Shown here: in pieces, positions 13,428 to 48,874 of the stretch | Numbering within the stretch: the stretch's first letter is position 1 | Layout of the letters: every line of letters begins with the position of its first letter | Origin: Nemertoderma westbladi | Lineage: Eukaryota; Animalia; Xenacoelomorpha | DNA length: 64,000 nt | NCBI GenBank assembly: GCA_032718475.1 | Contig: JAUCBJ010001004.1 | Coordinates: forward strand, 1-64,000 | Direction of reading: 5' to 3' | Notes under the pieces: model-generated | Told to the model about the DNA's origin: nothing | Database searches by the model: none | What the model saw: the letters and a program-made list of their open reading frames with translations, nothing else | Program-made: the position numbers and the translations under genes

Positions 13428-14024
13428 ATGGATAATATTATTTTTGTTGATTTTCAATATTATAAGATAGACAATAAAGAGTATCCGGTAGTATTTAAAG
13501 AATTTGCTATATTCGATTCTAATTACACCAAAACTAATGTAAAGATGTTTTTAATTAAAGGCCCACCTATTATTAAGTTATCAGCTTTAGATGTAGCTCA
13601 CGTAAACAATTTACGAGACATGACTTCTCATTTGCCCTGGGACTACGGTGACATTTCGCAAGATGACTTTAAAAAATATATGAAGAGACATTTAAAATAT
13701 AAAAAAAATATACATGTATTTGGGTTGATGAAATGGGCAATATTAAACACCCAACTCGATGTTCTCGCGCCAAATTCGGTGGAGAAATTGGGAATATATA
13801 AGCAATATCATGATTATTTAACCCCCTGTCGCTTCCACGATCAATTTACTACAGTAGAAAATAAATGTGCGTTCCACTTAAACATTAGGGATAACTGTCT
13901 GCGATACTGCTCAGCAAAACGCGTTGGGGGGTATGAGATGCTACACTTTTTCATGAGAAAGCGTTTAACTGCGACTGATGATGATAAACAGAAAGAAATA
14001 ACTGCGGTGGAAGATGTACTGTAG
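13428..14024 (+). CDS. Polinton DEDD/DnaQ-like exonuclease-fold protein
   Basis: IFVDFQ...FKEFAI...HLPWDYGDI...IHVFGLMK...C..H...C pattern, resembling the small DEDD-derived proteins of invertebrate Polintons. Confidence 0.55.
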   Translation: MDNIIFVDFQYYKIDNKEYPVVFKEFAIFDSNYTKTNVKMFLIKGPPIIKLSALDVAHVNNLRDMTSHLPWDYGDISQDDFKKYMKRHLKYKKNIHVFGLMKWAILNTQLDVLAPNSVEKLGIYKQYHDYLTPCRFHDQFTTVENKCAFHLNIRDNCLRYCSAKRVGGYEMLHFFMRKRLTATDDDKQKEITAVEDVL

Positions 14025-15310: not shown

Positions 15311-15334
15311 GCAGCATCGCTGCCACCCTCGCGA

Positions 15335-15485
15335 GCAGCCTCGCGGCACGCAGTCAGCCTCGCGGCACGCAGTCAGCCTTGCGGCACGCAGTCAGCCAGC
15401 CTCGCAGCCAGCCTCGCGGCACGCAGTTAGCCTCACGGTCGGTCATGCAGTCAGCCAGCCAGCCACGCAGCTAGGCACGTAGTCA
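15335..15485. repeat. GC-rich ~19-bp minisatellite
   Basis: Unit CGCGGCACGCAGTCAGCCT in tandem with degenerate copies. Confidence 0.85.
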
Positions 15486-15576: not shown

Positions 15577-15861
15577 CTAATCACCAATATATTCTACACC
15601 TAAAGTCACAACACCAAACATTAATAAATAATTAACAAGTTTACTAAATATAGGGTAATAAATGTGAAATTTGCTAGGTGAACACATTAAAGTACATTTA
15701 CCGGTATGAAAGCAGCAAATGACTACGGTATTATTTATTCTTATTTTGCAATTATTAAAAATTTCAGGTTCATATATAACTTGAAGTTGCACATTATCAA
15801 AGACAACATAAAACCCGGTATTGTTTATCAATAACCTATAGACTACAGACTTAATACTAAA
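15577..15861 (-). pseudogene. 3' half of viral TBP-like gene (split by LTR element A)
   Basis: Encodes FSIKSVVYRLLINNTG...VIYEPEIFNNCKIRINNTVVICCFHTGKCTL. YEPE(I/L)F and F.TGK..L match the second TBP repeat. In frame with 48605-48874 across the TSD. Confidence 0.75.
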
Positions 15862-15866
15862 AATAT

Positions 15867-17126
15867 TGTACGCGCTTTTGAAGACCTTTAGCAGTTTAAC
15901 CTGCCAAAATTTATATGTCTTTTGGTTTATAAATAGACTTTAGAAGTTGACAAATATTTAATACCAATAAACACAACATTAGCAGAAGCCAGCCTAGTGC
16001 GCGTCCATTCACCCGCTGGATATACCCGGGAGACTGGATTCTGAGGGCTTAGATTATTATTGCAGTGTAAGCTTACTGTATTATTCGATTGATCGTTAAT
16101 AAATAATTTCTGACTAATATTATTCACTTTCGGGAAATATTAACAGTTCCTTTAGGACGTGGCGCTCTATCTAGGTAAACAGAGATATGACTTATACTAA
16201 TCACAACGGTAAGTCGGTGAGGCTTATGATTCAAGTATGAGGCGCATTCTTTAGGAAATGCTTAGTTATCAGTCACAATCAGGCACACTACCGGTAACAC
16301 ACAATACTGCTCAATAATTTGCCGACCGTCAATGAATTTTATCATATATAAAGAGAACAGCAATGGACTCATGTAGTGCTTATCAAATAGCATTAAATTC
16401 ACTACAAACCACAATAATATAAGTCGCAATCGCTATATATAACCCGTCTCTCTAACCTGTAGTGTATCAAGAAAATTGGGAAATTTGGGTTCTTTATAAA
16501 TGTTCTCCAAATAATATTCAACCAAAACACAACAGTAAAAAGCATTAAGACGGTAGGTTAAGATATGAAATGACAATGTATATGCCGATTGAGTCGAGTT
16601 GATTGAGTTGAGTTGATAACAGTTATACGCTCTATAATTTAAGCCTACTAATGTTTCTTCTAAAGTATGAAAACGAATTGACTCTAGAGCCGGTGTTCCT
16701 GGCCTAGATAGAAACAACACAACAGTATCAAGAAAAAACAGTAAGACTGAACACTCCTAGTATGATCGGCCGAATATCTCCACATCGACAGAAAAAATCG
16801 CTCTGATTGGCTTAAGCTAAACAAAGAACCATGTGTCCAATGGCCGTTTCCATGTCAGCAACCAGCTGTTAGATGTCGTAATCTGAATCATCAAGGCTAA
16901 GCTGTGTAAAGGTATTTGGTGCATTGCGGGTTTTTTGCCTTACCATGTCCGCCAAAGCACGTATATAGAAGAATGACTTTTATGTCCGTTAAAACACCTA
17001 TAACGGTACCTTGCGGGCGAGGGGAATATATATATAGTTAGAGAGCCTTTTAGAGTATTCCAGCGCCTGGGGGTAAACTGGATTGCGAAGCAAAAGGGCC
17101 AGTTATATCCCACAGAAGCTTTTACA
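15867..17126 (-). repeat. 3' LTR of element A
   Basis: Near-identical to 47345-48604 (about 7 substitutions seen by eye). Preceded on the - strand by the purine tract GGGAGCGG (17127-17134). Confidence 0.96.
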
Positions 17127-17204
17127 CCGCTCCCAGAAAATGGGATTTGAGTCTATAAAATATACAAAATCACAGTTTCTAATATACGTAAATACTCTAA
17201 ACAG

Positions 17205-18656
17205 TTAGTCTTTCTTGCGCGGACGGCGTTTACGCAGTTTTTTAAAGCTAGCCAGAGTCCTTTTCTCTTTGGGGCGAGCCACTTTACAAGGAGGGCTATA
17301 ACTCCTGGGTGAAGGGTGCAATATGATTGCATCAGAGGGTGTAGGATTATGGTCGGTGTATCCGCCAGTCGAAGTACCGGGTTGATTGACATCAACGTCA
17401 GGGGAGAGGGGTCTAACGGCTTTGAGAGCTCGTTTCAAGACAGCCGCTCTTACGGGTCCTTTACGAGTGGTCTGAACGAGGGCCGTGGGTGGACCATAGG
17501 CAGTTAGAAACCTCCTGGGTTTAATGGTTCTTTCCAACTCGCATTCGCGGGCTCGGTATTCGTAAGGCCGTCGATATACTTCCTGTAACTCGGGGTGTGA
17601 GTTAACAAATAAGTCTCCATAGTCTGGGTCCTGACGGATATAATTGATTAAGTTATAGGAATGAAGGTCGCTAGGATTAACACTCCTAAGAAATTTGCGT
17701 ACGAACTTGGTTGAAATACATTCTCCGACGCGCTTCAGTAGTTCGTAACTCGATATGCGTGATTTCTGTTCGACAGAAGCGGATAGGTAAGGATGGAACG
17801 CATAAACTCCTTCGTAAGCGCGTCCAGGATAATAGCGATGGCGCGAATCACAATGTAAATCAGCGTTCGCTTCCCAAGCTCTGATGTAACGTAGTGTGAT
17901 CATTTCATCTACGCTTTCCAAATCGCGATTAAAAGGGCAATCGAAACTGGCGTGTCCCTTTAGTTGACAATGGTGACATTGAGTCATAAATTGAGGGCAA
18001 ACCGCAAAAATGTGCAAGTTATTGAGTCTGCAATACGCGCAATAAATTTCCATCGCCGGTTGTTCGTGGAAATAGGAACAGCGGACGACGTTTGTGTCCA
18101 TGGGCGTAACATGGTCTCTCGATGCGCATAACCGACAACGTTGCCGAGAAACATAGTTGGCATGGCGATAATTGTACGCAGTGAGACACTGTGGACCTTG
18201 ATACCATTCTAGGATGTAATCGTTGTCGCTGTTCCGGGCGCGATAGGCTGAATCTCCTCAGATTCTAGGCATATTGGTTCGTCTTCCCAGTCTGTTACGA
18301 ATAGAATTTTCGTGATCTATTCTCGGTTTATCGTTACGACTCCGCTGGGTATAATATTTAAATAGAACCATTTCCCTTTCGGTGTCTACATCGTCCGTAT
18401 CATGTAAATCGATAGGATGGCAGGTAGTTAGGAAGTCCATATACGCACTATTACGATGCGTATAGCGAGCGGTGAATTTTCGATAGTCCAATTCACGCGT
18501 AAATTGCTCTTGGGACATCGGCGGTTCGATATAACGACCATCGTCCTCCGTAATGGTTGGATCGATTTCACCGCGTATCAAGCTATCCACAAATGCTTGT
18601 AAAGGTAGAGTATATCGCTCCCTGATACCAAGATCATCTTCTATCAACTCCGTCAT
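17205..18656 (-). pseudogene. Accessory 3' ORFs of element A (Zn-knuckle protein), internally deleted
   Basis: Homologous to B 36501-38735. About 0.8 kb is missing near 18290. Retains CAYCRLNNLHIFAVC, CHHCQLKGHASFDC and the basic tail. Confidence 0.85.
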
Positions 18657-23187: not shown

Positions 23188-23192
23188 ATATG

Positions 23193-24398
23193 TGTAAAAG
23201 CTTTTGTGGGATAACTGATTCGTTTGCCTTGTTGGCCAGTTCCCCCCCAGTCGCTAGAATACTCTCAAAAGGGATCTATAGCTAAAAATAGTGCAAGTTA
23301 CCAGCTTATTGGCTGATTTGTTGTACGCAGGCATCTGGGCTCTGTTTAATCGGCCAACAAGCCTAGGGAGGTTGCATCATAGCCTTGTTTTTGTATCTCC
23401 CAATAGAATTTGAGTTAGCCTTGATTTTGACCTATCACAGAGCTACTGAACTGAAATTTTCCTATCTCACTGCTCTTTCTCTGTGTTGAAAGGGAGCTTC
23501 GTGGAATAAGGGTAGTTGGTATCCTCGTATAGAGCAGTAGTCACGAGTTTTTCAAAGCCACGAAAGAACGGCTTTGTAGTGTTTTATGCTTTCTGCTTTT
23601 TAGCTCAACACTAGTAGGTTTAATTATAAGGACATATATCCTTTAACTGGCGACCGCATTTGACACACCGTACCACACGGCTTTTAATAACTGCTGAAAC
23701 TGCTAAAATTTACCTGCTCAATCAATACTGTGTACTGCTATTTGTTGTCGGTTATTCATTATATTGGTTGATGAATTATTATATTGGAATAACGAGAAAT
23801 AACCCCGACACCCAATATTCTTGATATACCGAAGGTAAGAGAGAAAGGTTACCAATAACGATTGTGACTTATGTTAAAGTGGTTTGAAGTGAATCTAATG
23901 TTATTTGATAGACCCTACATGAGTCAGTCTGTGTTCCTTTTATATGTGACTAAAATCAGTGAAGATTGGCAGATTAGTGTGCAGTATTGTGCAGCATTGT
24001 GTATGAGTGAGTCTGTTAAAGAAGCATTTCCTAAAGAATGCGCCATATATGTGAATTATAATTAAGCCATATCGTTGTGAGTAGTTTAAGTCATAACTCT
24101 GTTTATATAGATAAAGCGCCACGTCCTAAAGGAACTGTTAATATTCCCCGAAGGTGAATAATATTGTCAGAGATTATATAATACTGTCAGTCGAATAATA
24201 CATTAGGCTTACATAGCAATAAAATTAAACCGTCGAACCCAATCTCCCGGGAATATCCAGCGGGTGAATGATCGCGCACAGATTGGTTTCGACTAGTGTA
24301 GTGAATCAAATACTTGTCATAGGCTAAAAAGCGATTTAATATCTAGAAGACATCTTAATTTGGCGGGTTAAACTGCCAAAGGTCTGAAAGCGCGAACA
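23193..24398 (+). repeat. 5' LTR of element B
   Basis: Matches 38814-40019 with only 2 substitutions seen by eye. Confidence 0.97.
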
Positions 24399-24410
24399 TT
24401 AAAGGATATA
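24399..24410 (+). promoter_or_regulatory. Non-tRNA primer-binding site of B, complementary to LTR positions 23635-23646
   Basis: TTAAAGGATATA directly abuts the LTR and is the exact reverse complement of TATATCCTTTAA inside the LTR. It does not start with TGG. Confidence 0.7.
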
Positions 24411-24469
24411 GCTTCTTTATTGCAGTAAGCAATAAAGTTGAAAGTACCGGTCAACCGGTAAACCTGAAC

Positions 24470-25320
24470 GGTACATCTGTAGGTCAGTAGGCCCAACCGC
24501 CAGAACCGGTACTGCCGTAGGTCCGTAGGTCCAACTGCCAGAACCGGTACTTCTGTAGGTCCGTAGGCCTAGCTGTCCTAACCGGTACTTCCGTATAAGT
24601 ACACTAGTATTATTCGATTTGATTGTTGCATACCGGTAGGCTGTTAAGGGATTAGGGATTGATCACCCCTTATTCCTTTATATGGTTTACTTATTTCTGT
24701 CAAGTTTTATTTATTTGTAGGCCAGTATTGAACAGAAGGCGTGTAAACCTGATCAGATTGTACAGACGATTTGTAGGCTGAGCTGTTGTCTGATTGCTGT
24801 TAAGTCCGAACGAATTGCAGTGTGTGTAGATCACCTGTCCGATTAAGTACGGTTAGGAAGTAGGGGCAGCGAATGCTGTAAGGTAAACCCTCAACTAAAG
24901 AATAAGTCGTACTACTGGGTTAGAACGTATACTCCCTAATCATTTCGGAGTCTGCATGTCCTGTAGTTTATTTAGGCTTGAGAGTAGTCTGCCATCGTTT
25001 AGTCTGTACTTTGTTTGTGTAAGTCTGTACGGGTAGCGTATAATTTTATTTAGATAATTTGTAGGCTGGATAGTTGTCTGGCTGTTATTAGGTCTGAACG
25101 GATTGCAGTGTGTGTAGATCACTTGTCCGATTAAGTACGGTTAGGAAGTAGGGGCAGCGAACGCTGTAAGGTAAACCCCCAACTAAAGAATAAGTCGTAC
25201 TACTGGGTTAGAACGCATACTCCCTAATCATTTCGGAGTCTGCATGTCCTGTAGTTTGTTTAGGCTTGATAGTAGTCTGTCAGTGTTCGGTCTGCATTTT
25301 GTTTGAGTAGTTTGTACGCG
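24470..25320 (+). repeat. Leader repeats of B: short CCAGAACCGGTAC..GTAGG units and a 288-bp direct repeat
   Basis: GATTAAGTACGGTTAGG at 24841 and 25129; equivalent repeats in A at ~46470-46960 and ~47150-47290. Confidence 0.85.
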
Positions 25321-26653
25321 TAGCGTAATATTTATTATTCAGAGTTTATGCGATTATCCGCAACATTCATTCCCCAAGTTTGTTCCTACAGTAATTGTGT
25401 TTGTTATACATACCGCTATAGTTAAATTAACCCCGGTACTACACGGGCTGCTTGGCGTAGGTAAAGACTGGTGATTCTGTGCATCGGTCACTCCAGCAGA
25501 TGCCGTGGTTCTTTTAGCTGTTCAAGTATATTTAACTACTGATTATCTGTTGTACAAGTACTCGTACCTAATTTAGGGTTTAGTGTACAGTGCTTTCCGA
25601 AAGTAATTAGTGAAGACATTATATTTGTGTTGTAAAGTGGTTGATAGGCACGTTCGATTAGCTCTATTAACTTCTAGGTAGGAACACTCCGTGATACATA
25701 ACGTAGAACCTATAGCGATACGGCTATAGGTCGTCAGGCGGTGGTATTTTCCTATCTGGACAACGCAGTGTATTTACTACTACTTATTATTTCAAATACC
25801 GTAGTATCCTGTCCGTTGTAATAACCAGAATTCTAACCCTTTGTTAGGCTGGTTAGTAGACTTCTTGTAAAATTACCCTAAAAATTCGTATTTTGTGTTT
25901 TTTGTAAATTTTTGTGTTTATTTAGAGATTGTAATCTCAACCCGAATTGTACGTAATTTGTAGTATTAAGTAACTTAGGTAAATTAGTATTATTTGTTTT
26001 AGTGTCCTATAAGTAACACTTCACTGAAAGCGCACCGCTTTGTGTAGTGATTACTCCCCAGAAATAATAACATTTATTTCAAACATTGACTAAACCCATT
26101 CAAACGGGTATATATATATTATAAATCAAATCTAACAATTTATAAATAGTAGGCCTACCATATACCAATTAGGTCTCAATATCAGTTGGACTACTGCTTA
26201 AATAACGGTAATAAAGTAAGTTAAAGTAACCAAGTAACCCTAAAGTTCAGAAATTCAATTATTCTAAAATAATTGATATACCGGTATTTACGATAGGCCT
26301 ATTATAATATTTATATTTGTGCTGAAAGCATACCGGTATTCTGTAATTAATTCAGTTAATAATTATACTTATATATACACTACAAACTGTCAGCTGTACC
26401 GGTATTCCCGATAGGCCTATTATATATTTATATATATTTGTGCTAAAATTATACCGGTATTCGGTGATAAACCTAGTCTGTAATAATAGTTATATATACT
26501 ATAAGCATACCGGTATTCTAATATATTATATATATATCACGCTACACTGAGTAGCAGTACCGGTAATTAATTATTAGGCTAGCAGTTAATACTGAGTTAC
26601 TAGACTTGCTCAGACTGTAATACAGCAGTAGACATTCAACTGTATACATAGTC

Positions 26654-29600
26654 ATGTCTGATACTAAGCAGAACCTGTCAGACAGTATATTAGATGTAAC
26701 TATCTGCGACTCAGATAGAGACGTACAACCGTCTGGTCGTAAATTCTGTTCACCTCCCACTGTGAGGAAGGTCATCCCTCCAGTAGTAATAACAGAACCT
26801 AGGCTAGTCCAACATCGTAGGTCTATCATAGGCACTCGAGCTCAGGTCAAGCGGGACCAAGAAGCAGCGGAACAGTAACAACCCGCGAGTCAAGAACTTA
26901 TTCCTCAGCGGCCCAGCAGCTCCAGTAGTGAGGATACTGTAGAGCTGACACCCGAGCGCGGAGCAGAGATGACGGATGCGGTTTATACGGATCCCCTTCT
27001 CATCCTTCCAGCAGCCGTACTCACTAGGTTATTGATCGCGGTGGAAGAACACCAGATCGATTGGGCGAGAAGTCAACGGACAACTAGAGATAGTTACGCG
27101 GGATACACGAGTGAAGAACTGAAGTCCATTGTCGAGTCGCAATGGAACTTTCCCGGACCCGGACTCCCGTTTGATTTATCAGAAGCTGCCTGGGAAGACA
27201 TACACCGGATGGGAGTAGCCAAGGAAACCATCGATCCAGCTGTATGGAAGAGGTCCGCAGCCGGATACGCACAGGGATTCTTCAGCTCTATGGAGCGAGT
27301 AGAAAGACAACTGTTTAAACAACCTCAAGGACCTCAAGAGCAGGGACAGCTGCTTTATCAAGTTAGAGAAAGAGTTCTGCGAATTAGGCTAATCTTATCC
27401 GCCTTTGAGGAGGCTTCTAAAAGAAGACAAGACACGTCGTTGCAAGTTGCCGTAAAGACTTGGCTTCAAAGGGTGAGACGCCAGGTTCAAGGAGCAGCTC
27501 AGTGGAAAGCTCAGTTGGAGGAGCGCTCAACACATGGAGAATCGACGGACGCTACTTTTTCCCAAGTGGAAAGTGAAGCGACGGCAGAGAAACCGCATAA
27601 GAAGGATGCCATTGATATTTATCTGTCAGACTATCAGCGTTTTTTGGGAGATGAAGAGTTGAGGAGAAGGCTAGAGGGACTTAGCCCTAATAGCGAAGGA
27701 GCCAAACTTGTGTTAGATGCGATTGATGTGGATAGGTTAGCGGCGAACCAAGCTAAATTCGATGAACAACTCCGCATCGCTAGAGAAAAGGAAGAACAAG
27801 TAAGGAAAAAACGTATAGAAGATAGAAAGACAGCAGCAGCGGCAGTGGCAGCGGCAGAAGCGGAAAGAAAGGCAGCAGAGGCAGCGGCAGAGGCAAAAGC
27901 GGCAGCTGCAGCCGTAGAAGCGGAAAGGAAAGCGGCAGCGGCAGAAGCAAAAGTGGCAGCGGCAGCTGCAGCCGTAGAAGCGGAAAGGAAAGCGGCAGCG
28001 GCAGAAGCGGAAAGAAAGATAGCAGTGGCAGAAGCAGAACGGAGGGCATCTGAAGAGACAACCCAACTAGAGTTGGAAAATCTTCAAGAGAGGCAAGATA
28101 ACTTTAATAAACAGTTAACAGCTAGTAATATGCAGATGATGAATCGATCTACTCCCAAACGACAAGGTTATACATCATCTGAGGAAGGCGATACCACCGA
28201 CACTGAAGGCGGAGGAAATCGATCCCGCCTAAGCAGATGTAAAAGAACATTCCACCGTCAGAAATTGCCTGATTTGCCTCCAGCTGTTAGAAGGCAACTA
28301 AATAACACCAACTTAGAGAGTACAGAACCCACAGACCAAATAATTACAATAGAAAGACTCCCTACTATAGTAGATGAGCCTGAAATAAGTAGGCCTGTTC
28401 TTGAAATCACCCCTTCGGTAATAGATACACCTGTGCTCCCTGAAGCTACCTATAAATTCCCTCTAAATTCCCTCTGCATAGCACTAAGCTACCTGTGCCC
28501 CGTAGAACTGCCCAGGAGACAGTTCAGGTCCTGGACCCCGAGCGAAATATTCCAAATTTGTCGCCCGTTGTCCCTCGTCTGCCCGCTACGACGTTGGCGG
28601 ATCCCGTTTCGGCGGTTGATTGGGTAGACGAGAGACGGCGGGGGATGGATATTCTCCTAGGAGAGATGAAGGAGAATCGGATACGCTCTTCCCAACAGGT
28701 CCGAGAGTTGGAAGGGACTGTCCAACATTTAAAAGGAACAGTGAGGGAAAGTAAGTTAGAGTTGCAAGAAGTGCAGCAAAGTATCGCGCTAGAGCGCGAT
28801 AAATTAGTAAATACTCAAAGAGGTATACCACCACCCTCTGTAACAATGTGTCAACCTGTTAGGTCTGAAGTATCGCATGCGCAAGGTGTGGAGCCTACAC
28901 GCATATATACTGCTAGCGAAGTAGAAACTCCTATAGTGAACCCTATTAAGGGAAATTATAGACCTGTTGATAATGATATTCCCTATAGAACTGATCATAA
29001 TCCGAGAAATTTATATACCGATAATTCGATATTAAATAACACGATGGCCCAAGAAAGTTTTACGCGTCAAATGGCTAGAACCGAAGCCCGGCAAGCGGTA
29101 AAGGTGGGAGAGATCGTCAAGTTCAATGGAGATGAGATGAAATGGTTACCTTTTAATGAATATTACAAAGATAACATACAGAATTCTGTACTATCTAATG
29201 GAGAAAAACTTAGATACCTCATCGAGTGCTTGGAAGGATCTCCCAAATTAATGGCGTTAAAGTTTATTGGACATCCAGACGGATTAAGACAAGTTTGGGA
29301 TACACTAAACATCAGGTATGGTAATAGGAATAATATCGCTGGGTACTTATATGCAAAGTTAGTAGCGCCCCGAAAGTTTATTAGTAGTGGAATTATCGAG
29401 TTTTCCGATGAGATCCAGGAGATCTGCAGACAATTAGATTGGCTAGGTAAGTCTCATGAGTATCAGAACACTATGGTTATTAGAGCAGTGGCTTCTACTT
29501 TACCGAAAGGTGGAGTAGGTACACGCTGGGATAAGAAAGTGTTATATATGATGGAACAACAACGACGAGACCCTACCATGGCTGATCTCATGTCATTCCT

Positions 29601-32600: not shown

Positions 32601-34851
32601 CAACAACAAGTTGAAAGTTCCTCGAGCGGAGTTAAAGGCGGCTCTATACGCTACAGCCATCGGCCGGAATGTAACCGAACAGATTGACTATACATTAGAG
32701 AAAACTGTCTATTGGACCGACGCTTTACTCGTGTTAGAGTATATAACCAATGAAGTCTGTCAGTTCAGCGTCTTCGTTACCAACAGGGTAGCCATCATAC
32801 TTAGTCGCACGACGATGGACCAATGGAGACATTGCCCCGGAACGATTAACCCAGCAGACATCGCGTCCCGAGGAGCGACTCCAAAGGAATTGGTAAATAC
32901 TCCCGAATGGTTAGGAGGACCCGACTTTCTCTACAGAGAAGAAGAAGAATGGCCTCCCCATCTCACAACAGCAGAGATCAGACAGGCCAAGGGAGCGGAG
33001 AAAGTTAAACCCAAAACTCGAGCGAGTAAATCGAAGTTGTTTAAACCTGCGGTTGATCTATCTGTATTATTTACTTCCGGAGAGGATGCTTTGGATCAGA
33101 AACCCACCGCCACGACGAAAGAAGTCTTGGAAATCCGTGACAAGGATTGGAAATCTAGAATACCAGATATCGCGCAAGGACTCTCACCTCTCTTGCAGAG
33201 AGCGATACGTCACTACAGTTCCTGGAATCGACTCTGTAAAGCTGTCACCTATTTAAAACGATGTTTTCATCATCGTTACTCCGGGACAAAGCCCAATAGT
33301 GATGATGCTCCATCAACATCTGCACGAGTCCATGTTGTTAAAGATCTTCCACAATACAAGGTATCCGACAGGTTTCTAAAGGAGAAGATCAGCTACCAGG
33401 AGCATGATGAAACCAACAAACAGATGCTGAGACTCCTACAATGCTATGAGGATTCCGATAAGTATTTCCTGTTGTTAAGAAATCCGCAGATGCGCTTAAG
33501 GGATCGCTTCTCTAGTACCATGATAGATGGGTTAATACGTGTTGGAGGTCGGCTCACCAACGCCCCGTTATCCTTTGACACTAAATTTCCCATACTCATT
33601 AGAAATCTTGATATACAAATCAAGATAATTGTGGATGTTCATAGCAAACTGTATCATGCTGGTAGAGAACGAGTTCTGAGCGAAATTCGAACTCGCTACT
33701 ATTTTTATAAACCTCGTAGGGCTCTGAACCAAGTTCTTAGGAATTGTATACCCTGTAGGAAAGCATTCAGTAGGCCTTTGACACAGCGAGAGGCAGAATT
33801 ACCTAGGGAAACAGTAAGCTTCTATGAACCACCCTTTACTAATACCGGTGTGGATTTATTTGGCCCTATTGAAGTATATCGTGCCCGGACTATAGTCAAG
33901 AGATGGTGTGTCATCTTCGTTTGTATGACTTGTAGAGCTATCCACCTCGATATGGTAAACGATCTCTCCACCAACAGCTTCGTGTTGAGTTTACGACGAC
34001 AGATCGCTCGCTTCGGAACCAGTAACACGATGAGATCGGATAAGGGAACGAACTTCATTGGCGCCAACAACGAAATTCAAGCTTACGTAAAGGACTGGAA
34101 CAAAAGACAGGTGGACGATCAGCTAAGGATAACAGCGTCTAGCTGGACCTTCAACGCCGCCGACGCCCCTTGGTGGGGAGGAAGTTGGGAGAGATTGATT
34201 AGGAGCGTGAAGACTGCGTTCCATTTTATTGTGCCCTGTCGCGCTTATCTCACCGACGAACTATTGCGGACGTTAATGGAGGAAATCGCCGCCTATCTCA
34301 ACGAAAGACCGCTTATGCCAGTCTCTTCAAATCCTGATTCCCTGGAAGCGCTAACACCCGCGCACTTTCTACTGAAGAAGCCCGTAGCCATGCTCCCACG
34401 ATCAGAGATCACCGACGGAGACGAGTACTGCCGTCGAACCTGGCAACTTATGCAGTTGCTATCCCGTCGTTTCGCTGACCATTTCGAGAAACATTACCTG
34501 CCCACTCTACAACTTCGAACTAAGTGGTTTGCGCAGCAAGAAAACGTCAGCGCTGGAGACATGGTGCTTATTGTGGACCCCGATCTCCCACGTAAGCGAT
34601 GGCAAACGGGACGTATCATCGAGACTTATATCTCGAGCGATGGTTTGGTGCGATCAGTAGAGCTCGTCGTCATGCGGCGGAACTTTAAGAAACCAGGGAT
34701 AGTCTTTGAGACTCAACAGCTCAATCGCCCAGTGGGACGTTTATGTTTACTGGAAAGAGACAGAGAGCTCTCCGGAAACTATGGAAGGCAAGAAACTCTT
34801 CCCACGACCACTTCCCTAATCCAACCGACATCTAGGGACTCCCCAACTTAA
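26654..34851 (+). pseudogene. gag-pol: Single gag-pol polyprotein of B with one nonsense codon (26876-26878) and one frameshift (~28455-28476); the 28495-34851 portion is open
   Basis: Ala/Glu coiled-coil N-terminus; KFNGDEMKWLPF and KLRYLIECLEG (BEL gag); three CCHC knuckles; ALLDSGS protease; RVVFDGS, SDIEGMFLQV and YMDD RT; RNase H; integrase DLFGP...SDKGTNF...WERL. The frameshift is an 11-nt tandem duplication of AAATTCCCTCT that is absent from A. Confidence 0.95.
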
Positions 34852-36500
34852 TATCGTTCGGAGTGGGCGTGTGACTCTATTATTTTATATTATTTTATTA
34901 TTTTTTACATTTATGTATGTATTACTATGTAATTTTATTATAATCGTTTTATTTAATTTAGTAGAATATTATTTAGCGATTATTTTGTAGAATAGTGCAA
35001 TATATTCGTGTTTATTACGTACGTAATTACTTATATTATATTTAGTGAGACGGCGAAGAAATAATTATTTTTCTCTTTCCTTACTGTCCGTATTATATTA
35101 TAAATACGTAACTACAGTAAGATGAAATGTCCGTACTTATTAAAGTACAATAAAGCCACTACTATATTTAAGTATTATTGGTAGGCAGAGTATTAGGAAT
35201 GCAAAGTTCAGATCCTCGTGTCTCGGCTAAACCAAGCTCTGGGTAGACCTTGGAAACGACTTGCCTCTTCACACTGACATTGCTTCGTGCGATATTGCTC
35301 TCATACCGTATATTAAATAATACATATAGTAGCGTGATGTCCCTTTAACAGTAGCGTATAACGCAAAATAAATCTGTTAAACCCTTTGACCATCTGTAAT
35401 TCTAGTCGATTAAGATATCGTGGCACCCACCGATATACTTGAAAGACAAATTATAGAATCAGTGGTTAACGTCCCCAGACAAGTTCTGGAATAAATCGGT
35501 GCCCATCTCAAATATTAATTAGTTAATATTTACAAATCAAATAAGTCAAAATCTGTAAAATTCAGATCCTTCAACAATTCTAGTCAATTAAGATATCGTA
35601 GCATTTACCGATATTCTTAAAGAGACAATTTTCTTAGAATTAAGGATCTTGTGTCCCTAGACATGTTCTAGAATCAAAATATGCCCATTTAATTATCAAA
35701 TAATAAAATTTCAGGGAATAAATTTAAATTCATGTCTTTTAATGAATTTAATAAATTGCCATTTTACGCGATTTATAACATTCCCAAAATTCCATTAATT
35801 AATAGATCAAGGGAGCGGAGATTTATATTATTATGCATATGAGTGTGCGAAAGTCTCCCAAACATAGTTAATAGCTGATAAAATTCGTAAAGTCATGTAT
35901 AAACAGGACATTGACTATTAAAGAATTCCTATTAAATAACATCCCAGATCTGTATGCATTGGAATTACCCTAATTCTACCGCTAGCTTTATATAATGTCA
36001 CCATAGCAACAACCACGCTAGAATTAGAATTGAGTTAAAAGAACAATAGAAAGCTTGTCCCATTGAATAGCATAGGGAATAAATAGCGCACTGCTAGTAT
36101 CCAAGGATACATAATAATACAGTGACATTCTGGAAGGCATTGACTAACGGACAAATGGCCCGAATGTGCGTAGTTGTGACCAGTTGTGTGGTATTTGTGA
36201 GTTTATAGGTGAATGTTACTGCTAAAGTGTGTTTACAGTAGCTAGTCGCAATCGTAAAGTAACCTAACTCTCCAAGGAATACCTGAAGTACATCTAAGCC
36301 TTTGGGACGGACAGTGGAGTGACTTGTGCCGGTTATCGTTGTCGTTGTACGGCTACGTCGTTGGCGAAAGTACAGCTACAGCGGTACATCGGCGCTGAGA
36401 ATCTCCTACTGTCCGGGGGCAAGGGAGAAATAGGCAGCGACGCCCGCTCGCCTAACGATATATAAACTCATTATAATATTGGTGAACTTGTATAGCAGAT

Positions 36501-36866
36501 ATGACTGAATTAATAGAAGATGATCTTGGTATCAGGGAGAGATATACTCTACCTTTACAAGCGTTTGTCGATAGCTTGATACGCGGCGACGCTGATCCAA
36601 CTACTACGGAGGACGATGGTCGTTATATCGAACCGCCAATGTCCCAGGAGCAACTTACGCGTGAATTGGATTATAGAAAGTTCACTGCTCGCTACACGCA
36701 TCGTAATGGTACGTATATGGACTTCTTGACCACTGGTCATCCTATTGATTTACACGATACGGACGATGTAGACACCGAAAGGGAAATGGTTTTATTTAAA
36801 TATCATGCCCAGCGGAGTCGAAACGATAAATCGAGAATAGAACACGAGAACCCTATTCGAAATTAA
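36501..36866 (+). CDS. Accessory ORF2 of B (acidic, unknown function)
   Basis: 121 aa, conserved in A (18258-18656), and preceded by TAGCAG|ATATG in both elements. Confidence 0.65.
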   Translation: MTELIEDDLGIRERYTLPLQAFVDSLIRGDADPTTTEDDGRYIEPPMSQEQLTRELDYRKFTARYTHRNGTYMDFLTTGHPIDLHDTDDVDTEREMVLFKYHAQRSRNDKSRIEHENPIRN

Positions 36867-36959
36867 CTCGAAGGATAGAACGTGGAAGAAGAATGCGAAA
36901 TAGTTTTTCCTCTGCTCTACCATCGCTGTCGGAGAACATATTAGGCATACAATGGGAAT

Positions 36960-38735
36960 ATGGAGAACATTCCATACCCTTTCGTTGATACTCAGCTGAT
37001 TGCTCCTTGGGCCGAAGGCCGAGGTTTCTTTCGCACTATGTATGCCAATACACCCAGCGGCATTACTAAAGTACAACGGACATCCATTGGACATCTTGCC
37101 TTTCAAGAATATGGTTGGAATTTCAAAGTTGGAAATCCTATAAATTACCAGCAAGTATATGGAGATCATTACTCTCGTTTATATTTTGATGGACCATTAA
37201 CTGCGCCTGGTGCCGTATATAGCTTTATGAGTGTTCCCCTTCGCCCTTCCTTAGCTATATACACGATCTTTGAAAATGCAGCACTTGCCGGTTGGCTAGC
37301 CGATGTGTGCAGTCGTACCATACGCGCTCATCCGTTAATACTTGGAACTAAACTCGCCAAGTTAGACGAACACAATAAGTTCATACGTTTCGAATGTTTC
37401 CGGCGCTTTCTGACTCCGTTCCGTAACGTCGATAGTCAGTTCAAGGATCGCGCGCTGACCAAGCTCAGTCTTAGAGACTCAGCTGCGGAGAAACTGAGTA
37501 GCGCTGGATTTGCCGTCTTTCAAGACGTTTGTATACAGAACCTACATTCATCCGTTATACAAAGAGCCCGAATATCTACAGGTTATTCTGTCGTGGAAAT
37601 ACAGACAGTGGGTCCACTTACGGAAACCGACGCACCCACTTCGTCTATGCAGCTGGAGGATGAACCAGTATGCTTGGAATCAGAAGCGATTCAACCTACG
37701 GCTTCTCGGAGCAGTGACAATGATTATGTCATAGAGTGGTATCAAGGTCCACAGCGTCTCACAGCGTACGATTATCGACACGCCAACTACGTTTCCCGAA
37801 AACGTTGTCGATTATGCGCATCGAGAGACCACTTCACTCCTCTAGACTCGAGCGTACCTTGTTCCTATTTCCTCGAACAACCGATGATGGAAATATATTG
37901 TGCTTATTGCCGGCTTAATAACTCTCATATATTTGCCGTCTGCCCACAATTTATGACTCAATGTCACTACTGCCAACTTAAAGGACACGAAAGTTACAAT
38001 TGTCCCTTTAATCGCGATTTAGAGAGCGTAGACGAGATGATCACCCTGCGATACATCCGAGCTTGGGAAGCGAACGCAGATTTACATTGCGAATCCAGAC
38101 ATCGCTATTACCCTGGACGAGCTTACGAGGGAGTTTACGCGTTCCATCCTTATCTATTCGCGTCGATTGAACAGAAAACACGCGTACCAAGTTACGAGTT
38201 AATAAAGCGTGTTGGTGAGTGTATTTCCACCAAGTTTGTCAGAAAATACCTTAGAAATGTCAACCCTAATGATATAACCACATATCACCTGATCAATTTT
38301 ATCCGTCAGGACCCTGAGTATGGCGACATTTTCGTGAACTCGCATCCTGAACTCCAGGAAGTATCTCGGCGCCCATATGAATATCGAACCCGAGAACGCG
38401 AGCTGGAGAGAACCATTAAACCGAGAAAGTTCCTCACCACTCACGGTCCACCCACCGCTAGTGTCCAGACGACCCGTCAAGGACCCGTAGGAGCTGCTGT
38501 CCTGAGACGCGCTCTAAAGGCCGTTAGATCTCACTCCACTGAGGTTGATATTAATCAACCAGGTACTTCGACTGGCGGGTATACCGATCGTAACCCTGCA
38601 CCTTCTGATGCAATTATATTGCACCCTTCGCCTAGGAGCTACAGCCCTCCTCGTAAAGTGGCTCGCCCCAAAGAGAAAAGGACTCTTGCTAGCCTTAAGA
38701 AACTGCGTAAACGCCGTCCGCGCAAGAAAGACTAA
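36960..38735 (+). CDS. Accessory ORF3 of B: 591 aa with Cys/His Zn-knuckle cluster and basic NLS-like tail; not an env
   Basis: CRLCASRDH, CAYCRLNNSHIFAVC, CHYCQLKGHESYNC (C-X2-C-X4-H-X4-C) and KKLRKRRPRKKD. No signal peptide or TM helix apparent. The C-terminal half is conserved in A with mostly synonymous changes. Confidence 0.8.
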   Translation: MENIPYPFVDTQLIAPWAEGRGFFRTMYANTPSGITKVQRTSIGHLAFQEYGWNFKVGNPINYQQVYGDHYSRLYFDGPLTAPGAVYSFMSVPLRPSLAIYTIFENAALAGWLADVCSRTIRAHPLILGTKLAKLDEHNKFIRFECFRRFLTPFRNVDSQFKDRALTKLSLRDSAAEKLSSAGFAVFQDVCIQNLHSSVIQRARISTGYSVVEIQTVGPLTETDAPTSSMQLEDEPVCLESEAIQPTASRSSDNDYVIEWYQGPQRLTAYDYRHANYVSRKRCRLCASRDHFTPLDSSVPCSYFLEQPMMEIYCAYCRLNNSHIFAVCPQFMTQCHYCQLKGHESYNCPFNRDLESVDEMITLRYIRAWEANADLHCESRHRYYPGRAYEGVYAFHPYLFASIEQKTRVPSYELIKRVGECISTKFVRKYLRNVNPNDITTYHLINFIRQDPEYGDIFVNSHPELQEVSRRPYEYRTRERELERTIKPRKFLTTHGPPTASVQTTRQGPVGAAVLRRALKAVRSHSTEVDINQPGTSTGGYTDRNPAPSDAIILHPSPRSYSPPRKVARPKEKRTLASLKKLRKRRPRKKD

Positions 38736-38813
38736 CTGTTTAGAGTATTTTTATATTTTAGAAACTGTGATTTTGTATATTTTATAGACTTAAATCCCAT
38801 TTTCTGGGAGCGG

Positions 38814-40019
38814 TGTAAAAGCTTTTGTGGGATAACTGATTCGTTTGCCTTGTTGGCCAGTTCCCCCCCAGTCGCTAGAATACTCTCAAAAGGGATCTAT
38901 AGCTAAAAATAGTGCAAGTTACCAGCTTATTGGCTGATTTGTTGTACGCAGGCATCTGGGCTCTGTTTAATCGGCCAACAAGCCTAGGGAGGTTGCGTCA
39001 TAGCCTTGTTTTTGTATCTCCCAATAGAATTTGAGTTAGCCTTGATTTTGACCTATCACAGAGCTACTGAACTGAAATTTTCCTATCTCACTGCTCTTTC
39101 TCTGTGTTGAACGGGAGCTTCGTGGAATAAGGGTAGTTGGTATCCTCGTATAGAGCAGTAGTCACGAGTTTTTCAAAGCCACGAAAGAACGGCTTTGTAG
39201 TGTTTTATGCTTTCTGCTTTTTAGCTCAACACTAGTAGGTTTAATTATAAGGACATATATCCTTTAACTGGCGACCGCATTTGACACACCGTACCACACG
39301 GCTTTTAATAACTGCTGAAACTGCTAAAATTTACCTGCTCAATCAATACTGTGTACTGCTATTTGTTGTCGGTTATTCATTATATTGGTTGATGAATTAT
39401 TATATTGGAATAACGAGAAATAACCCCGACACCCAATATTCTTGATATACCGAAGGTAAGAGAGAAAGGTTACCAATAACGATTGTGACTTATGTTAAAG
39501 TGGTTTGAAGTGAATCTAATGTTATTTGATAGACCCTACATGAGTCAGTCTGTGTTCCTTTTATATGTGACTAAAATCAGTGAAGATTGGCAGATTAGTG
39601 TGCAGTATTGTGCAGCATTGTGTATGAGTGAGTCTGTTAAAGAAGCATTTCCTAAAGAATGCGCCATATATGTGAATTATAATTAAGCCATATCGTTGTG
39701 AGTAGTTTAAGTCATAACTCTGTTTATATAGATAAAGCGCCACGTCCTAAAGGAACTGTTAATATTCCCCGAAGGTGAATAATATTGTCAGAGATTATAT
39801 AATACTGTCAGTCGAATAATACATTAGGCTTACATAGCAATAAAATTAAACCGTCGAACCCAATCTCCCGGGAATATCCAGCGGGTGAATGATCGCGCAC
39901 AGATTGGTTTCGACTAGTGTAGTGAATCAAATACTTGTCATAGGCTAAAAAGCGATTTAATATCTAGAAGACATCTTAATTTGGCGGGTTAAACTGCCAA
40001 AGGTCTGAAAGCGCGAACA
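38814..40019 (+). repeat. 3' LTR of element B
   Basis: Copy of 23193-24398, preceded by the purine tract GGGAGCGG (38806-38813). Confidence 0.97.
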
Positions 40020-45111: not shown

Positions 45112-47333
45112 GTTTAGCTATACGGTTGAATGCCTACTGCTATAGTTACAGTTAAAGCAAGTCTAGTAATTCAGTATGACCGTTGGCCTAGTACCGGTAA
45201 TTTAGTACAGTATATTAGAATACCGGTATACACTTATAGTATATATAAGTATTGTAAACTAGGTTTATCACAGAGTACCGGTATATAAATTTAGCACAAA
45301 TATATAAATATATAATAGGCCTATCGTGAATACCGGTATACCACTTACACTTATAGTATATATAAGTATAATTATGAACTAGAATTAATTACAGAATACC
45401 GGTATGATTTCAGCTCAAATTTATAGGAATAAATATAATAAGCCTATGGTAAATACCGGTATGTCAATTATTTTAGAATAATTGAATTTCTGAATATTTT
45501 AGGGTTACCCGGTTACTTTAACTTACTTTATTACCGTTATTTAAGCAGTAGACCAACTGATATTGAGACCTAGTTGTTGTATGGCAGGCCTACTATTTAT
45601 AAATCGTTTGAGTTGATTTATAATATATATATACCCGTTTAAAATGGGTTTTGTCAATATTTGAAATAAATGTTATTATTTCTGAGGGAGTCACTACACA
45701 GAAGCTGTGCGCTCTCAGTGAAGTGACACTTATTTGACGCTAAAACAGATAATTCTAATTTACCTAAGTTACTTAATACTACAAATTACTTACGATACGG
45801 GTGAGATTAAATCTCTAATTAAACACAACAAAAATATTACGTACGAAATTTTAGGGTAATTTTTACAGGAAGTCTACAAACCAGCCTAACAAAGGGTTAG
45901 AATTCTGGTTATTACAACGGACAGGGTACTACGGTATTTAAAAATAATAAGTAGTAGTAAATATATTGCGCTGTCCAGATAGGAAAATACCACCGCCTGA
46001 CGACCTATAGCCGTATCGCTATAGGTACTACGTTATGTATCACGGAGTGTTCCTACCTGGAAGTTAATTACCGTGGACTACCAGATCCAACGTGCCTATT
46101 AACCACTTTACAACACAAATATACTGCCTACACACTAATTACTTCGGAAAGCACTGTACACTAAACCCTAAATTAGGTACAAGTACTGGTACAACAAATA
46201 ATCAGTAGTTAAATATACTTGAACAGTTAAAAGAACCATGGCATCTGCTGGAGTGACCGAAGCACAAAGTCACCAGTCTTTTCCTACGCCAAGCAGTCCG
46301 TGTAGTACCGGGGTTAATTTAACTATAACGGTATGTGTAACAAGCACAATTACTGTAGGAATAAACTTGGGGACATGAATGTTGCGAATAATCGCATAAA
46401 CTCTGAATAATAAATATTACGCTACCCGTACAGAATACTCAAACAAATACAAACCAAACGCTGGCAGACTACCACCAAGCCTAAATAAACTACAGTATGT
46501 GCAGATTCCAAAATGGTTAGTTAGTATGCGTTCTAACACGGTAGTACGACTTATTCTTTAAGAGGGGATTGACCTTACAGCTATGGCTGCCCCAACTTAC
46601 TAACTGGCACTTTATCAGACAAACTCTACACACGCAGCAATCTCTTCAGACCTAATAATAGCCAGACAACAATCCAGCCTACAAAATATCTGAGTAATAA
46701 CTATTACGGTACCTGAACAGACCACACAAACAAACACAGGCCAAAACGTTGGCAGAATACTGTCAAGCCTAAATAAACTACAGTATGTGCAGATTCCAAA
46801 ATGGTTAGTTAGTATGCGTTCTAACACGGTAGTACGACTTATTCTTTAAGAGGGGATTGACCTTACAGCTATGGCTGCCCCAACTTACTAACTGGCACTC
46901 TATCGGACAAACTCTACACACGCCGTAATCTCTCCAAACCCAACAACAATCTAACAACAGTCCGGCCTACAATTATCTGAACAATCTGAGCAGACTTACA
47001 CGTCTTCAGCTCAATATTAACTTACATGTAAATAAAACCGACAGAAATAAGTAAAATCTCAATAAAAAACCAGGGCTGCAGTCCCTGATTAAATACTAAG
47101 ACCTACCGGTATGCAATAATCAAAATCGAATAATACTAATGTACTTATACTGGAAGTACCGGTTAGGACAGTTGGGCCTACGGACCTACAGAAGTACCGG
47201 TTCTGGCAGTTGGACCTACGGACCTACAGCAGTACCGGTTCTGGCAGTTGGGCCTACTGACCTACAGAAGTACCGGTTTAGGTTTACCGGTCGACCGGTA
47301 CTTTCAACTTTATTGCTTACTGCAATAAAGTCA

Positions 47334-47344
47334 ATAACTGTTAT
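47334..47344 (-). promoter_or_regulatory. Non-tRNA primer-binding site of A, complementary to LTR positions 48094-48104
   Basis: In element sense ATAACAGTTAT abuts the LTR end and pairs exactly with ATAACTGTTAT inside the LTR. Confidence 0.7.
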
Positions 47345-48604
47345 TGTACGCGCTTTTGAAGACCTTTAGCAGTTTAACCTGCCAAAATTTATATGTCTTT
47401 TGGTTTATAAATAGACTTTAGAAGTTGACAAATATTTAATACCAATAAACACAACATTAGCAGAAGCCAGCCTAGTGCGTGTCCATTCACCCGCTGGATA
47501 TACCCGGGAGACTGGATTCTGAGGGCTTAGATTATTATTGCAGTGTAAGCTTACTGTATTATTCGATTGATCGTTAATAAATAATTTCTGACTAATATTA
47601 TTCACTTTCGGGAAATATTAACAGTTCCTTTAGGACGTGGCGCTCTATCTAGGTAAACAGAGATATGACTTATACTAATCACAACGGTAAGTCGGTGAGG
47701 CTTATGATTCACGTATGAGGCGCATTCTTTAGGAAATGCTTAGTTATCAGTCACAATCAGGCACACTACCGGTAACACACAATACTGCTCAATAATTTGC
47801 CGACCGTCAATGAATTTTATCATATATAAAGAGAACAGCAACGGACTCATGTAGTGCTTATCAAATAGCATTAAATTCACTACAAACCACAATAATATAA
47901 GTCGCAATCGCTATATATAACCCGTCTCTCTAACCTGTAGTGTATCAAGAAAATTGGGAAATTTGGGTTCTTTATAAATGTTCTCCAAATAATATTCAAC
48001 CAAAACACAACAGTAAAAAGCATTAAGATGGTAGGTTAAGATATGATATGACAATGTATGTGCCGATTGAGTCGAGTTGATTGAGTTGAGTTGATAACAG
48101 TTATACGCTCTATAATTTAAGCCTACTAATGTTTCTTCTAAAGTATGAAAACGAATTGACTCTAGAGCCGGTGTTCCTGGCCTAGATAGAAACAACACAA
48201 CAGTATCAAGAAAAAACAGTAAGACTGAACACTCCTAGTATGATCGGCCGAATATCTCCACATCGACAGAAAAAATCGCTCTGATTGGCTTAAGCTAAAC
48301 AAAGAACCATGTGTCCAATGGCCGTTTCCATGTCAGCAACCAGCTGTTAGATGTCGTAATCTGAATCATCAAGGCTAAGCTGTGTAAAGGTATTTGGTGC
48401 ATTGCGGGTTTTTTGCCTTACCATGTCCGCCAAAGCACGTATATAGAAGAATGACTTTTATGTCCGTTAAAACACCTATAACGGTACCTTGCGGGCGAGG
48501 GGAATATATATATAGTTAGAGAGCCTTTTAGAGTATTCCAGCGCCTGGGGGGAAACTGGATTGCGAAGCAAAAGGGCCAGTTATATCCCACAGAAGCTTT
48601 TACA
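47345..48604 (-). repeat. 5' LTR of element A
   Basis: Copy of 15867-17126. Confidence 0.96.
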
Positions 48605-48874
48605 AATATAAGTACATAAATTAACAGATTTTAAAATCAAATTAATACTAGTTTTATCAAATATATGCTTTTTTACTTTTTGGAAATTATACTTACTGCC
48701 TAATAATGTAATACGACCATTTTTAAATATTAATAATGTGGCACCAAATATCTTATATATAAACTGATTTGGTTTGAGTATGTGTTTACCAGGTAATTGA
48801 TTTTTTAATTCTTTAAAATTAATCGCTGACACTTGCTGGCAACTTACATTCTTATTAACTATCTGATAGTTCAT
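48605..48874 (-). pseudogene. 5' half of viral TBP-like gene
   Basis: NYQIVNKNVS...INFKEL...KPNQFIYKIFGATLLIFKNGRITLLGSK resembles TBP repeat 1 (I.N.V.....L.L..I...ALIFSSGKMVCTGAK). The ATG overlaps the 3' end of polB. Confidence 0.75.

Follow-up and report, generated by a model that had tools for sequence, protein, structure and literature searches.

The TATA-binding protein (TBP) bends a TATA-type box on binding and nucleates the pre-initiation complex. Four intercalating phenylalanines are a hallmark of TBP (PMC12529657), and TFIIB is contacted through two acids of its second stirrup (PMC7221094). As in the family described below, a virus-encoded TBP fold with an altered first-lobe surface is found in nucleocytoviruses and mirusviruses (PMC7221094; PMC10132985; matches in BFVD). 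The viral TBPs treated in PMC7221094 are mostly accompanied by a viral TFIIB, and their acidic positions vary, with C.L3.2 being conserved in about 40%. In poxviruses, VITF-3 is a TBP/TFIIB pair which serves the viral polymerase at later genes of the virus (PMC12917281). The beta- and gammaherpesviruses encode TBP mimics, like KSHV ORF24 and EBV BcRF1, which use the TBP fold for the later genes of the virus itself (PMC12529657). ORF24 hijacks host RNA polymerase II at a non-canonical TATA-like box. It keeps all four phenylalanines, is devoid of the acidic residues on the TFIIB side and needs five partner proteins (PMC12529657).

For Polintons, the only published TBP that we found is a label. 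The abbreviation 'TBP' is given in the Fig. 5 legend for MELD viruses with an adintovirus-like PolB (Starrett et al. 2021, PMC8502044), where a TBP-like gene is carried by a mid-size virus with pPolB, as is the case here. The label belongs to a section on non-animal datasets and is bare of analysis there. One supplementary file of that paper holds no match to 'TBP', and TBP or TATA is not mentioned in PMC11161782, 10.64898/2026.10.13.758929 and 10.64898/2026.06.19.733378; subscription papers, figures and preprint supplements may hold further examples.

The sequence analyzed here is a stretch of 64,000 nucleotides from Nemertoderma westbladi (contig JAUCBJ010001004.1), referred to as the window. 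It has pPolB, an adenain protease and capsid-like genes in common with Polintons, Mavericks and adintoviruses. It differs from typical Polintons by an additional TBP-like gene, and neither an integrase nor an ATPase nor terminal inverted repeats could be detected in the window.

The host element

The following features were assigned to the element:

6538-8271, reverse strand: 570-aa ORF, located at the element's left end
9482-11117, forward strand: two ORFs in minor capsid position, akin to the gene that relatives have between integrase and capsid
11113-11679, forward strand: basic core-protein-like ORF, labelled by position and composition only
11628-12941, forward strand: major capsid protein-like gene, assigned by synteny and interrupted by a stop at 12540-12542
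12920-13396, forward strand: adenain-type cysteine protease (PF00770, E = 9.5e-6, above the cut-off)
13401-14024, forward strand: 198-aa ORF, convergent on the TBP-like gene
48855-52893, reverse strand: protein-primed DNA polymerase B (polB), two frames meeting near 49522-49550
53424-54500, reverse strand: 347-aa ORF upstream of polB

The polB gene has 895 relatives, many of them with PF03175, and tblastn E-values of 1e-104 and 2.5e-134. Both parts of the capsid-like gene match one and the same ORF in the related loci L002, L007, L037 and L083, and we take it to encode the major capsid protein. The two ORFs at 9482-11117, the first of which lacks an ATG start and seems truncated at the 5′ side, presumably represent the minor capsid. 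No family match was found for the ORF 11113-11679 in Pfam or in the loci of relatives. The ORF 13401-14024 gave no matches, and a kinship to the ORF adjacent to the TBP gene in locus L014 was looked for and not found. The ORFs 53424-54500 and 6538-8271 share a segment of 46 residues (30% identity, E = 4e-6) and have no Pfam match. A PC4-like reading of these two ORFs was not confirmed by family searches.

Using four integrases and four ATPases of relatives as queries, no tblastn match was obtained in the window at E<=0.01; both genes were probably lost from this copy or are located outside the window. Polintons typically have terminal inverted repeats and a target duplication of 6 bp; no inverted match indicating such repeats was found between the left and right parts of the window. 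The element is a decayed copy of a Polinton/Maverick-type virus, and this copy is dead.

A TBP-like gene split by retrotransposons

The TBP-like gene and its insertion consist of the following features:

15577-15861, reverse strand: TBP-like gene, piece 2, 94 codons plus stop, with the whole second repeat and the YEPEIF stirrup
15862-15866, forward strand: left 5-bp target duplication AATAT (right copy at 48605-48609)
15867-48604, reverse strand: Bel/Pao LTR retrotransposon A, with LTRs and with Peptidase_A17 and DUF1759 in its ORFs
23193-40019, forward strand: Bel/Pao element B, related to A and nested in it in opposite orientation, with LTRs and a target duplication
48605-48874, reverse strand: TBP-like gene, piece 1, 90 codons with ATG start, first repeat and linker

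The original prediction of a TBP-like gene split in frame, with a start overlapping the end of polB, holds in its coordinates. Both pieces (48874-48605 and 15861-15577) are free of internal stops, giving 90 and 94 stop-free codons on either side of the insertion, and the start codon at 48874 lies within the final 20 nt of the C-terminal polB frame, which ends at 48855. The TBP-like repeat motifs and the YEPEIF sequence named in that prediction are present in the pieces. A single retrotransposon had been proposed as the insert; the insertion is real, but it consists of two Bel/Pao elements, one inside the other. The LTRs of element A (15867-17126 and 47345-48604) are 1260 nt long with 7 mismatches and have TGTA...TACA ends. 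Including the nested element, it spans 32,738 bp, which is the 32.7 kb gap between the two pieces. The LTRs of element B are 99.8% identical, and it has its own 5-bp duplication ATATG. We take the retrotransposon insertion that interrupts the TBP-like gene to be recent.

The two pieces were kept separate in all searches and scores. Each of them alone matches PF00352 (piece 1: E = 4.8e-4, 20.4 bits; piece 2: E = 2.5e-4, 21.2 bits), but both remain below the curated Pfam cut-off of 22.9. With a profile built from 116 relatives, the pieces rank first and second among 1046 ORFs of the window (30.8-31.9 bits for piece 1 and 18.4-18.8 bits for piece 2), the next ORF scoring 3.4 bits. They are colinear on this profile, covering positions 7-73 and then 80-167, and reach hhalign probabilities of 93 and 79, respectively. 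The spacing from the first-lobe phenylalanine to YEPE, counted over both pieces, is 70 residues, and it is 56-74 in 103 of the 116 relatives measured.

Among solved structures, the best match of piece 1 is the archaeal TBP 1mp9 (E = 0.01); none of 1.84 billion representative proteins matched it at E<=0.001. Piece 2 alone found nothing among the solved TBPs and was recovered in none of 10 candidates among longer proteins, and its single-sequence fold (pLDDT 41.6) gave no match at E<=0.001 in a structure search. The TBP-like identity and the reading of the two pieces as one interrupted, very divergent TBP-like gene are supported by the profile matches, by intact homologues in related Polintons, and by the empty-site contigs and the third-position bias described below.

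Unbroken copies and constraint on the reading frame

Other copies of the Polinton were judged from contigs of four sequencing runs (X1, X3, X4, and X5, the last being RNA only by guess). In all four runs, contigs continue across the insertion site without the retrotransposon, and loose contig ends run on into the other TBP piece (five contigs in X1, and also in X3, X4, and X5). An empty-site contig of 364 nt from run X4 covers 15787-15866 and 48604-48893, with 80 and 290 letters per side. The search for uninterrupted copies, which had been suggested as a test, thus showed the gene to be unbroken at this site in other copies.

In piece 2, 12 of the 15 listed differences between copies are located at third codon positions and 11 are silent (binomial P = 3e-4). 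In piece 1, both of the two differences are at third positions, and the polB comparison gives 12 of 22. This third-position bias between copies shows that the TBP-like reading frame is under constraint. In one sub-lineage of copies, the first glutamate of the Glu-Pro-Glu stirrup is replaced by aspartate.

The family of Polinton TBP-like proteins

An intact TBP gene was found in 4 of 101 polB-related loci, with 49-63 bits against PF00352. The whole family comprises 682 proteins, and the relatives have a median length of 171 aa, which is core size. The uniqueness implied before was therefore too strong a claim, since the gene belongs to this family of 682 proteins and the label 'TBP' has already been published (PMC8502044, Fig. 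5 legend). The genes flanking TBP differ among the TBP-positive loci. In L002 it lies on the strand opposite to polB, at a distance of 6.5 kb. In L012 and L014, TBP and polB share a strand, and TBP comes two ORFs downstream. L002 and L007 carry the same capsid type as well as integrase and ATPase.

The L007 protein has two separate PF00352 stretches, and its model (pLDDT 95.4) forms a TBP saddle with a TM score of 0.83 to human TBP (1cdw). Over 1cdw, 1ytb (yeast), and 2z8u (archaeal), the TM scores of the relative's model are 0.77-0.84, and the score is 0.73 to 1mp9, with an identity to cellular TBP of 20-25%. The family shares with cellular TBP (PF00352) the two-repeat saddle, as predicted by the relative's model, the YEPE-x-F stirrup, all but one of the four phenylalanines and the core size. 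Among the 116 relatives, the first-lobe and stirrup phenylalanines are conserved in 100%, the second-lobe phenylalanine in 99%, the first-strand asparagine in 97% and the two glutamates of the Glu-Pro-Glu stirrup in 97 and 99%.

According to the alignment to cellular motifs, three of the four intercalating phenylalanines are present in the window and in the family, the one of the first stirrup being replaced. In contrast to cellular TBP, the first stirrup of the family is shortened to K-P-x-Q and has no wedge phenylalanine. It is rebuilt as P-x-[QM]-[LYM] in 113 of the 116 relatives and reads K-P-N-Q-F in the window piece. This rebuilt stirrup is missing from the haloarchaeal, L104 and L105 TBPs and from the compared cellular TBP chain; the L105 protein, whose gene lies on a viral contig of 45 kb together with a family-B polymerase, still has the canonical phenylalanine in its first stirrup, unlike the Polinton family.

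The window piece keeps Glu-Pro-Glu and with it the two second-stirrup acids, which we take to be C.L3.2 and C.L3.4, the positions contacting TFIIB. Elsewhere, Asn-Asn stands in piece 2 in place of the Pro-Ala of the family (90 and 94%). Unlike cellular TBP, it lacks the proline after the stirrup phenylalanine (100% conserved in the family) and the last conserved glycine (99%). At the DNA-facing positions of its second repeat, the window protein has diverged more than the family. Compared with the viral TBPs of PMC7221094, the Polinton family keeps both acids at 97-99%, and the scanned ORFs yielded no TFIIB. Set against ORF24 and VITF-3, the Polinton protein consists of the core alone and shows the reverse pattern, in which the TFIIB acids are kept and one wedge phenylalanine is lost.

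Trees were calculated with four non-Polinton TBPs and, after thinning, 24 of the 116 relatives, without a full-length eukaryote TBP. In the first-lobe tree, the window piece and the 24 relatives form a group at 98/98 against the four other TBPs, but the branch is long and the alternative is not rejected (AU p 0.42); the second-lobe tree has unresolved branching. The branches of the window pieces are very long (2.9 and 3.4). Scans of viral contigs using the polB tail or an alignment of four TBP sequences yielded nothing confirmed, an alignment of 101 TBP sequences yielded one locus, and a scan of genome contigs yielded two TBP fragments on contigs binned as bacteria, but no set of archaeal TBPs. 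For annotation, it should be considered that such genes hide below the Pfam cut-off or in pieces.

A candidate promoter box

In L002, 7 of 12 genes have the hexamer ATAAAC within 10-90 nt upstream, six of them at -32 to -35, and in L007 8 of 12 genes do; these are only two elements, and they are related to each other. It was the top or second hexamer of an unbiased search in both, none of 300 random sets being as good, and it precedes their capsid, packaging and integrase genes. None of 33 TBP-negative loci of at least 8 kb, which are partial, shows the box at P<0.01. In the TBP-positive L014, inspection by eye, with one start misplaced, found ATAAAC in none of five upstream regions. In the window element only 2 of 9 genes have it upstream (P = 0.066), and the hexamer scoring best there is borderline, as 5% of random sets are as good. 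Because of the drift at DNA-facing positions and the missing ATAAAC box in its element, the window protein probably reads a site other than ATAAAC.

Proposed function and alternatives

On balance, we lean towards the reading that this is a TBP-fold gene of a decayed Polinton, split by an insertion, whose unbroken product likely binds the promoters of its own element and would recruit host TFIIB and RNA polymerase II. The redirection of host Pol II or competition for TFIIB that had been proposed is likewise an inference. The protein would use host TFIIB; no TFIIB gene was found in the elements: the scanned ORFs of the window, L002, L007, L012, and L014 gave no match to the TFIIB family, some short ORFs being outside the scan. 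The protein may also escape from host regulators that grip the first lobe, and it may serve late genes.

Alternatively, the protein could act as a decoy, either sequestering host TFIIB by its acidic stirrup or squatting on host TATA boxes, and thereby damp host transcription rather than drive viral promoters. In piece 2 and in the family, no part is better kept than the Glu-Pro-Glu-x-Phe stirrup, and in the window lineage the DNA-facing neighbours are changed and the common box is absent, all of which fits a decoy. However, two relatives have a common TATA-like box in front of their capsid, packaging and integrase genes, and the three phenylalanines and the first-strand asparagine (97%) are retained, so that we consider a decoy unlikely.

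Slightly less likely still is DNA binding outside transcription, e.g., in packaging, or in protein-primed replication through bending of the origin or the termini. Such a role would agree with the overlap of the TBP gene and the polB end in the window and with its position two ORFs downstream in L012 and L014, but not with L002, where 6.5 kb and a change of strand separate the two genes, nor with the retention of the TFIIB-side glutamates at 97-99%.

We give the same low probability to a private system with an element-encoded TFIIB-like or PC4-like partner, as in larger DNA viruses. Viruses with a TBP-like gene had, almost without exception, a TFIIB-like gene as well (PMC7221094). The segment common to two window ORFs looks PC4-like by eye, and an ORF of a related Polinton matches PF02229 weakly (E = 0.0034). 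Against such a partner stand the lack of a TFIIB family match in the scanned ORFs of the five elements and the varying flanking genes of the TBP-positive loci.

Finally, a gene that was already a dying passenger, or unrelated pieces matching by chance, might account for the very long branches, the sub-threshold Pfam scores and the decay of the rest of the copy, but this is very improbable and largely refuted by the target duplication, the empty-site contigs, the colinearity and the third-position bias.

The window copy itself is dead and mainly adds a very divergent member to the family. For the family, a wider reading can be put forward tentatively, with less confidence than the promoter-binding function preferred above. 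A widespread Polinton lineage might carry the smallest known viral transcription switch, a bare TBP core which keeps the handle for host TFIIB, has shed the regulator surface of the first lobe and uses a private box in front of capsid, packaging and integrase genes, and in the window branch protein and box may have shifted together to a new specificity. We know of no virion studied for most Polintons. A solo TBP with a matching box offers a direct handle on how Polintons switch on their virion genes. If the reading as a promoter factor is true, the protein would be the inverse of the herpesvirus mimic and could serve structure-function studies as a minimal TBP provided by nature.

The Two Gene Pieces and the Insertion Between Them

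The original prediction had placed a split gene related to the TATA-binding protein (TBP) in a Polinton, and its coordinates as well as the stop-free state of both pieces were confirmed. The first piece begins with the ATG at 48874 and runs for 90 codons without stops, and the second has 94 codons with a stop at 15577 and no internal stops. The arrangement is as follows:

48605–48874 (−), first piece of the TBP-like gene
15577–15861 (−), second piece of the TBP-like gene
15867–48604, element A, a Bel/Pao LTR retrotransposon separating the two pieces
23193–40019, element B, a related Bel/Pao element nested in element A in opposite orientation

The LTRs of element A are 1260 nt long with 7 differing positions, and a 5-bp duplication is present on both flanks. 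Element B resembles element A at 77–87%, has the target duplication ATATG and shows an LTR identity of 99.8%, compared with 99.4% in element A. Both elements are unusually long (about 16–17 kb each), and in each of them pol is followed by an additional ORF, at 17205–18257 (−) and 36945–38735 (+). The proposed overlap of the TBP-like start with the end of polB was also found, the frame that opens with this ATG overlapping the C-terminal polB frame by its final 20 nt.

Evidence for a Single Gene

Four lines of evidence show that the two pieces, which were analyzed separately, are one gene. Each piece alone matches the Pfam TBP family PF00352 just under the cut-off of 22.9 bits (20.4 and 21.2 bits). 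When scored by a profile built on 116 intact relatives, the two frames took ranks 1 and 2 among 1046 window ORFs, spanning the successive profile positions 7–73 and 80–167. The anchor spacing over the two pieces is 70 residues, compared with 56–74 in 103 of the 116 relatives.

Furthermore, the uninterrupted copies that had been suggested as a check exist, as the insertion-free site is present in four public sequencing runs (X1, X3, X4, and X5), which represent four studies and one of which may be the source of the window. An X4 contig of 364 nt, identified as one record by matching length and depth in two look-ups, covers 80 letters of the left piece and 290 of the right without the insertion. 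Loose ends running on into the other piece were seen in X1 (5 contigs), X3, X4, and X5.

Third codon positions account for 12 of the 15 between-copy differences listed for the second piece, 11 of the 15 being silent (P 3e-4); for the first piece both listed differences are at third positions, and for polB 12 of the 22 listed. As these differences stem from a small number of sub-lineages, they do not count as independent events. Close to where the TBP gene ends (15577–15600), a length difference of 9 bases, which keeps the frame, is present in the greater part of the depth in X1 and X3.

The Surrounding Polinton

The polB gene encodes a protein-primed polymerase with 895 relatives, of which the few named ones are all from animals; together with the Bel/Pao elements, they point to a probable animal host. 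The window copy of the Polinton is decayed and incomplete, since polB is split over two frames, the major one of the left-part ORFs matching capsid-position genes of complete relatives is broken by a stop, and searches within the window for an integrase, an ATPase, and terminal inverted repeats found none. An adenain protease lies in the left part. The ORFs 53424–54500 and 6538–8271, at opposite element ends, have a 46-residue segment in common (E 4e-6). It resembles PC4 by eye, but neither Pfam nor a profile made from one sequence bore this out.

Between the convergent ORF 13401–14024 and the TBP gene end lies a GC-richer non-coding block (14486–15440), in which imperfect tandem repeats of 19 bp are accompanied by duplicated stretches of greater length. 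Right of the Polinton, a Bel/Pao pol fragment (55402–57474; Peptidase_A17, integrase zinc finger, DUF5641) is followed by tandem arrays of 43-bp and 51-bp units (57721–58425).

Relatives with an Intact TBP Gene

By polB similarity, 101 loci were gathered (the 80 best of 229 in metagenomes and 21 in viral contigs). Intact two-repeat TBPs were identified in four of them, L002, L007, L012, and L014 (49–63 bits), many of the 101 being too short to reveal the gene. Among 1980 ORFs, both pieces have their top two matches in common, namely the intact TBP ORFs of L002 and L007, loci which carry an integrase, an ATPase, and the same capsid type as the window. The four intact TBPs as query retrieved 682 proteins (E ≤ 1e-5); PF00352 is present in all 120 listed.

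The L007 protein model (pLDDT 95.4) has a TM of 0.83 to human TBP and lower values to viral TBPs, with the Atlas in agreement. Folding the window second piece by itself produced a poor model and no structural match. In a second subfamily (L014:1376–3364, L012:4454–5739), two small ORFs lie between polB and TBP, and the second-lobe tree unites TBPs of this type with high support (100/98).

In addition, a phospholipase-A2-like ORF (PF08398, E 6.7e-11) was found at L007:3994–4398, two genes upstream of the intact TBP. Two short contigs in bacterial MAGs carry TBP fragments that look eukaryotic or viral (L103:601–918, L104:601–1017) and are probably mis-binned.

Conserved and Changed Residues

In cellular TBP, four phenylalanines insert into the DNA as wedges (PMC12529657); its second lobe offers two acidic residues for TFIIB contact and its first lobe binds TFIIA, TAF1, Mot1, and Brf1 (PMC7221094). 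Conservation in the 116 relatives is 99–100% for three wedge phenylalanines and 97% and 99% for the two glutamates. Unlike cellular TBP, the family lacks the fourth phenylalanine, the first stirrup being replaced in 113/116 by a shorter P-x-Q-L turn. The window pieces share this pattern and are thereby linked to the family.

The window second repeat diverges further: Asn-Asn replaces the Pro-Ala that follows the stirrup Phe, a Pro invariant in the family is absent, and Cys takes the place of the last Gly. Other copies list no or only silent differences at these codons, so that the changes look like lineage divergence rather than decay of the window copy. The first-lobe tree grouped the piece with the family (98/98) with the alternative not rejected (AU p 0.42), and the second-lobe tree placed the window piece without resolution.

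Upstream Boxes

ATAAAC precedes 7/12 genes in L002, where six of the boxes lie at −32 to −35 relative to the ATG. In L007 it precedes 8/12, and the enrichment in these two related elements is above 300/300 random sets. None of 33 TBP-negative loci of at least 8 kb was enriched at P < 0.01. The kinship of L002 and L007 counts against a shared box, as do the 2/9 genes with ATAAAC in the window element (P 0.066) and 0/5 upstream regions in L014 (by eye). The best hexamer of the window element, ATCATT (4/9 genes), is borderline, 5% of random sets doing equally well, and resembles an initiator-type motif.

Proposed Role of the TBP-Like Protein

Judged from sequence, we lean toward the product of unbroken copies being a solo promoter factor that would use host TFIIB and Pol II. 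For the steps beyond sequence anatomy, we infer that this factor would occupy sites upstream of genes in its own element and then engage host TFIIB and Pol II, and that the rebuilt first lobe would let it evade host regulators. No TFIIB family match was found among the ORFs scanned in the window, L002, L007, L012, and L014. Of the viruses with a TBP analyzed in PMC7221094, almost all own a TFIIB too, and their acidic residues are variable, whereas the Polinton carriers show no TFIIB match in the ORFs scanned and keep the acids.

With the TFIIB-contacting glutamates kept, a decoy for TFIIB is conceivable but unlikely. Slightly less probable still are a role in replication or packaging and, equally, action with an unrecognised viral partner. 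That the window gene is a passenger, or its match due to chance, is scarcely credible.

Among viruses, TBP-like factors have been described in nucleocytoviruses, mirusviruses, herpesviruses, and poxviruses (PMC7221094 and PMC12529657, among others). The Fig. 5 legend of PMC8502044 carries the label 'TBP', and a search of the openly accessible literature found no analysis of a Polinton TBP. The window copy belongs to a Polinton-type TBP family, in which it is dead and strongly divergent.
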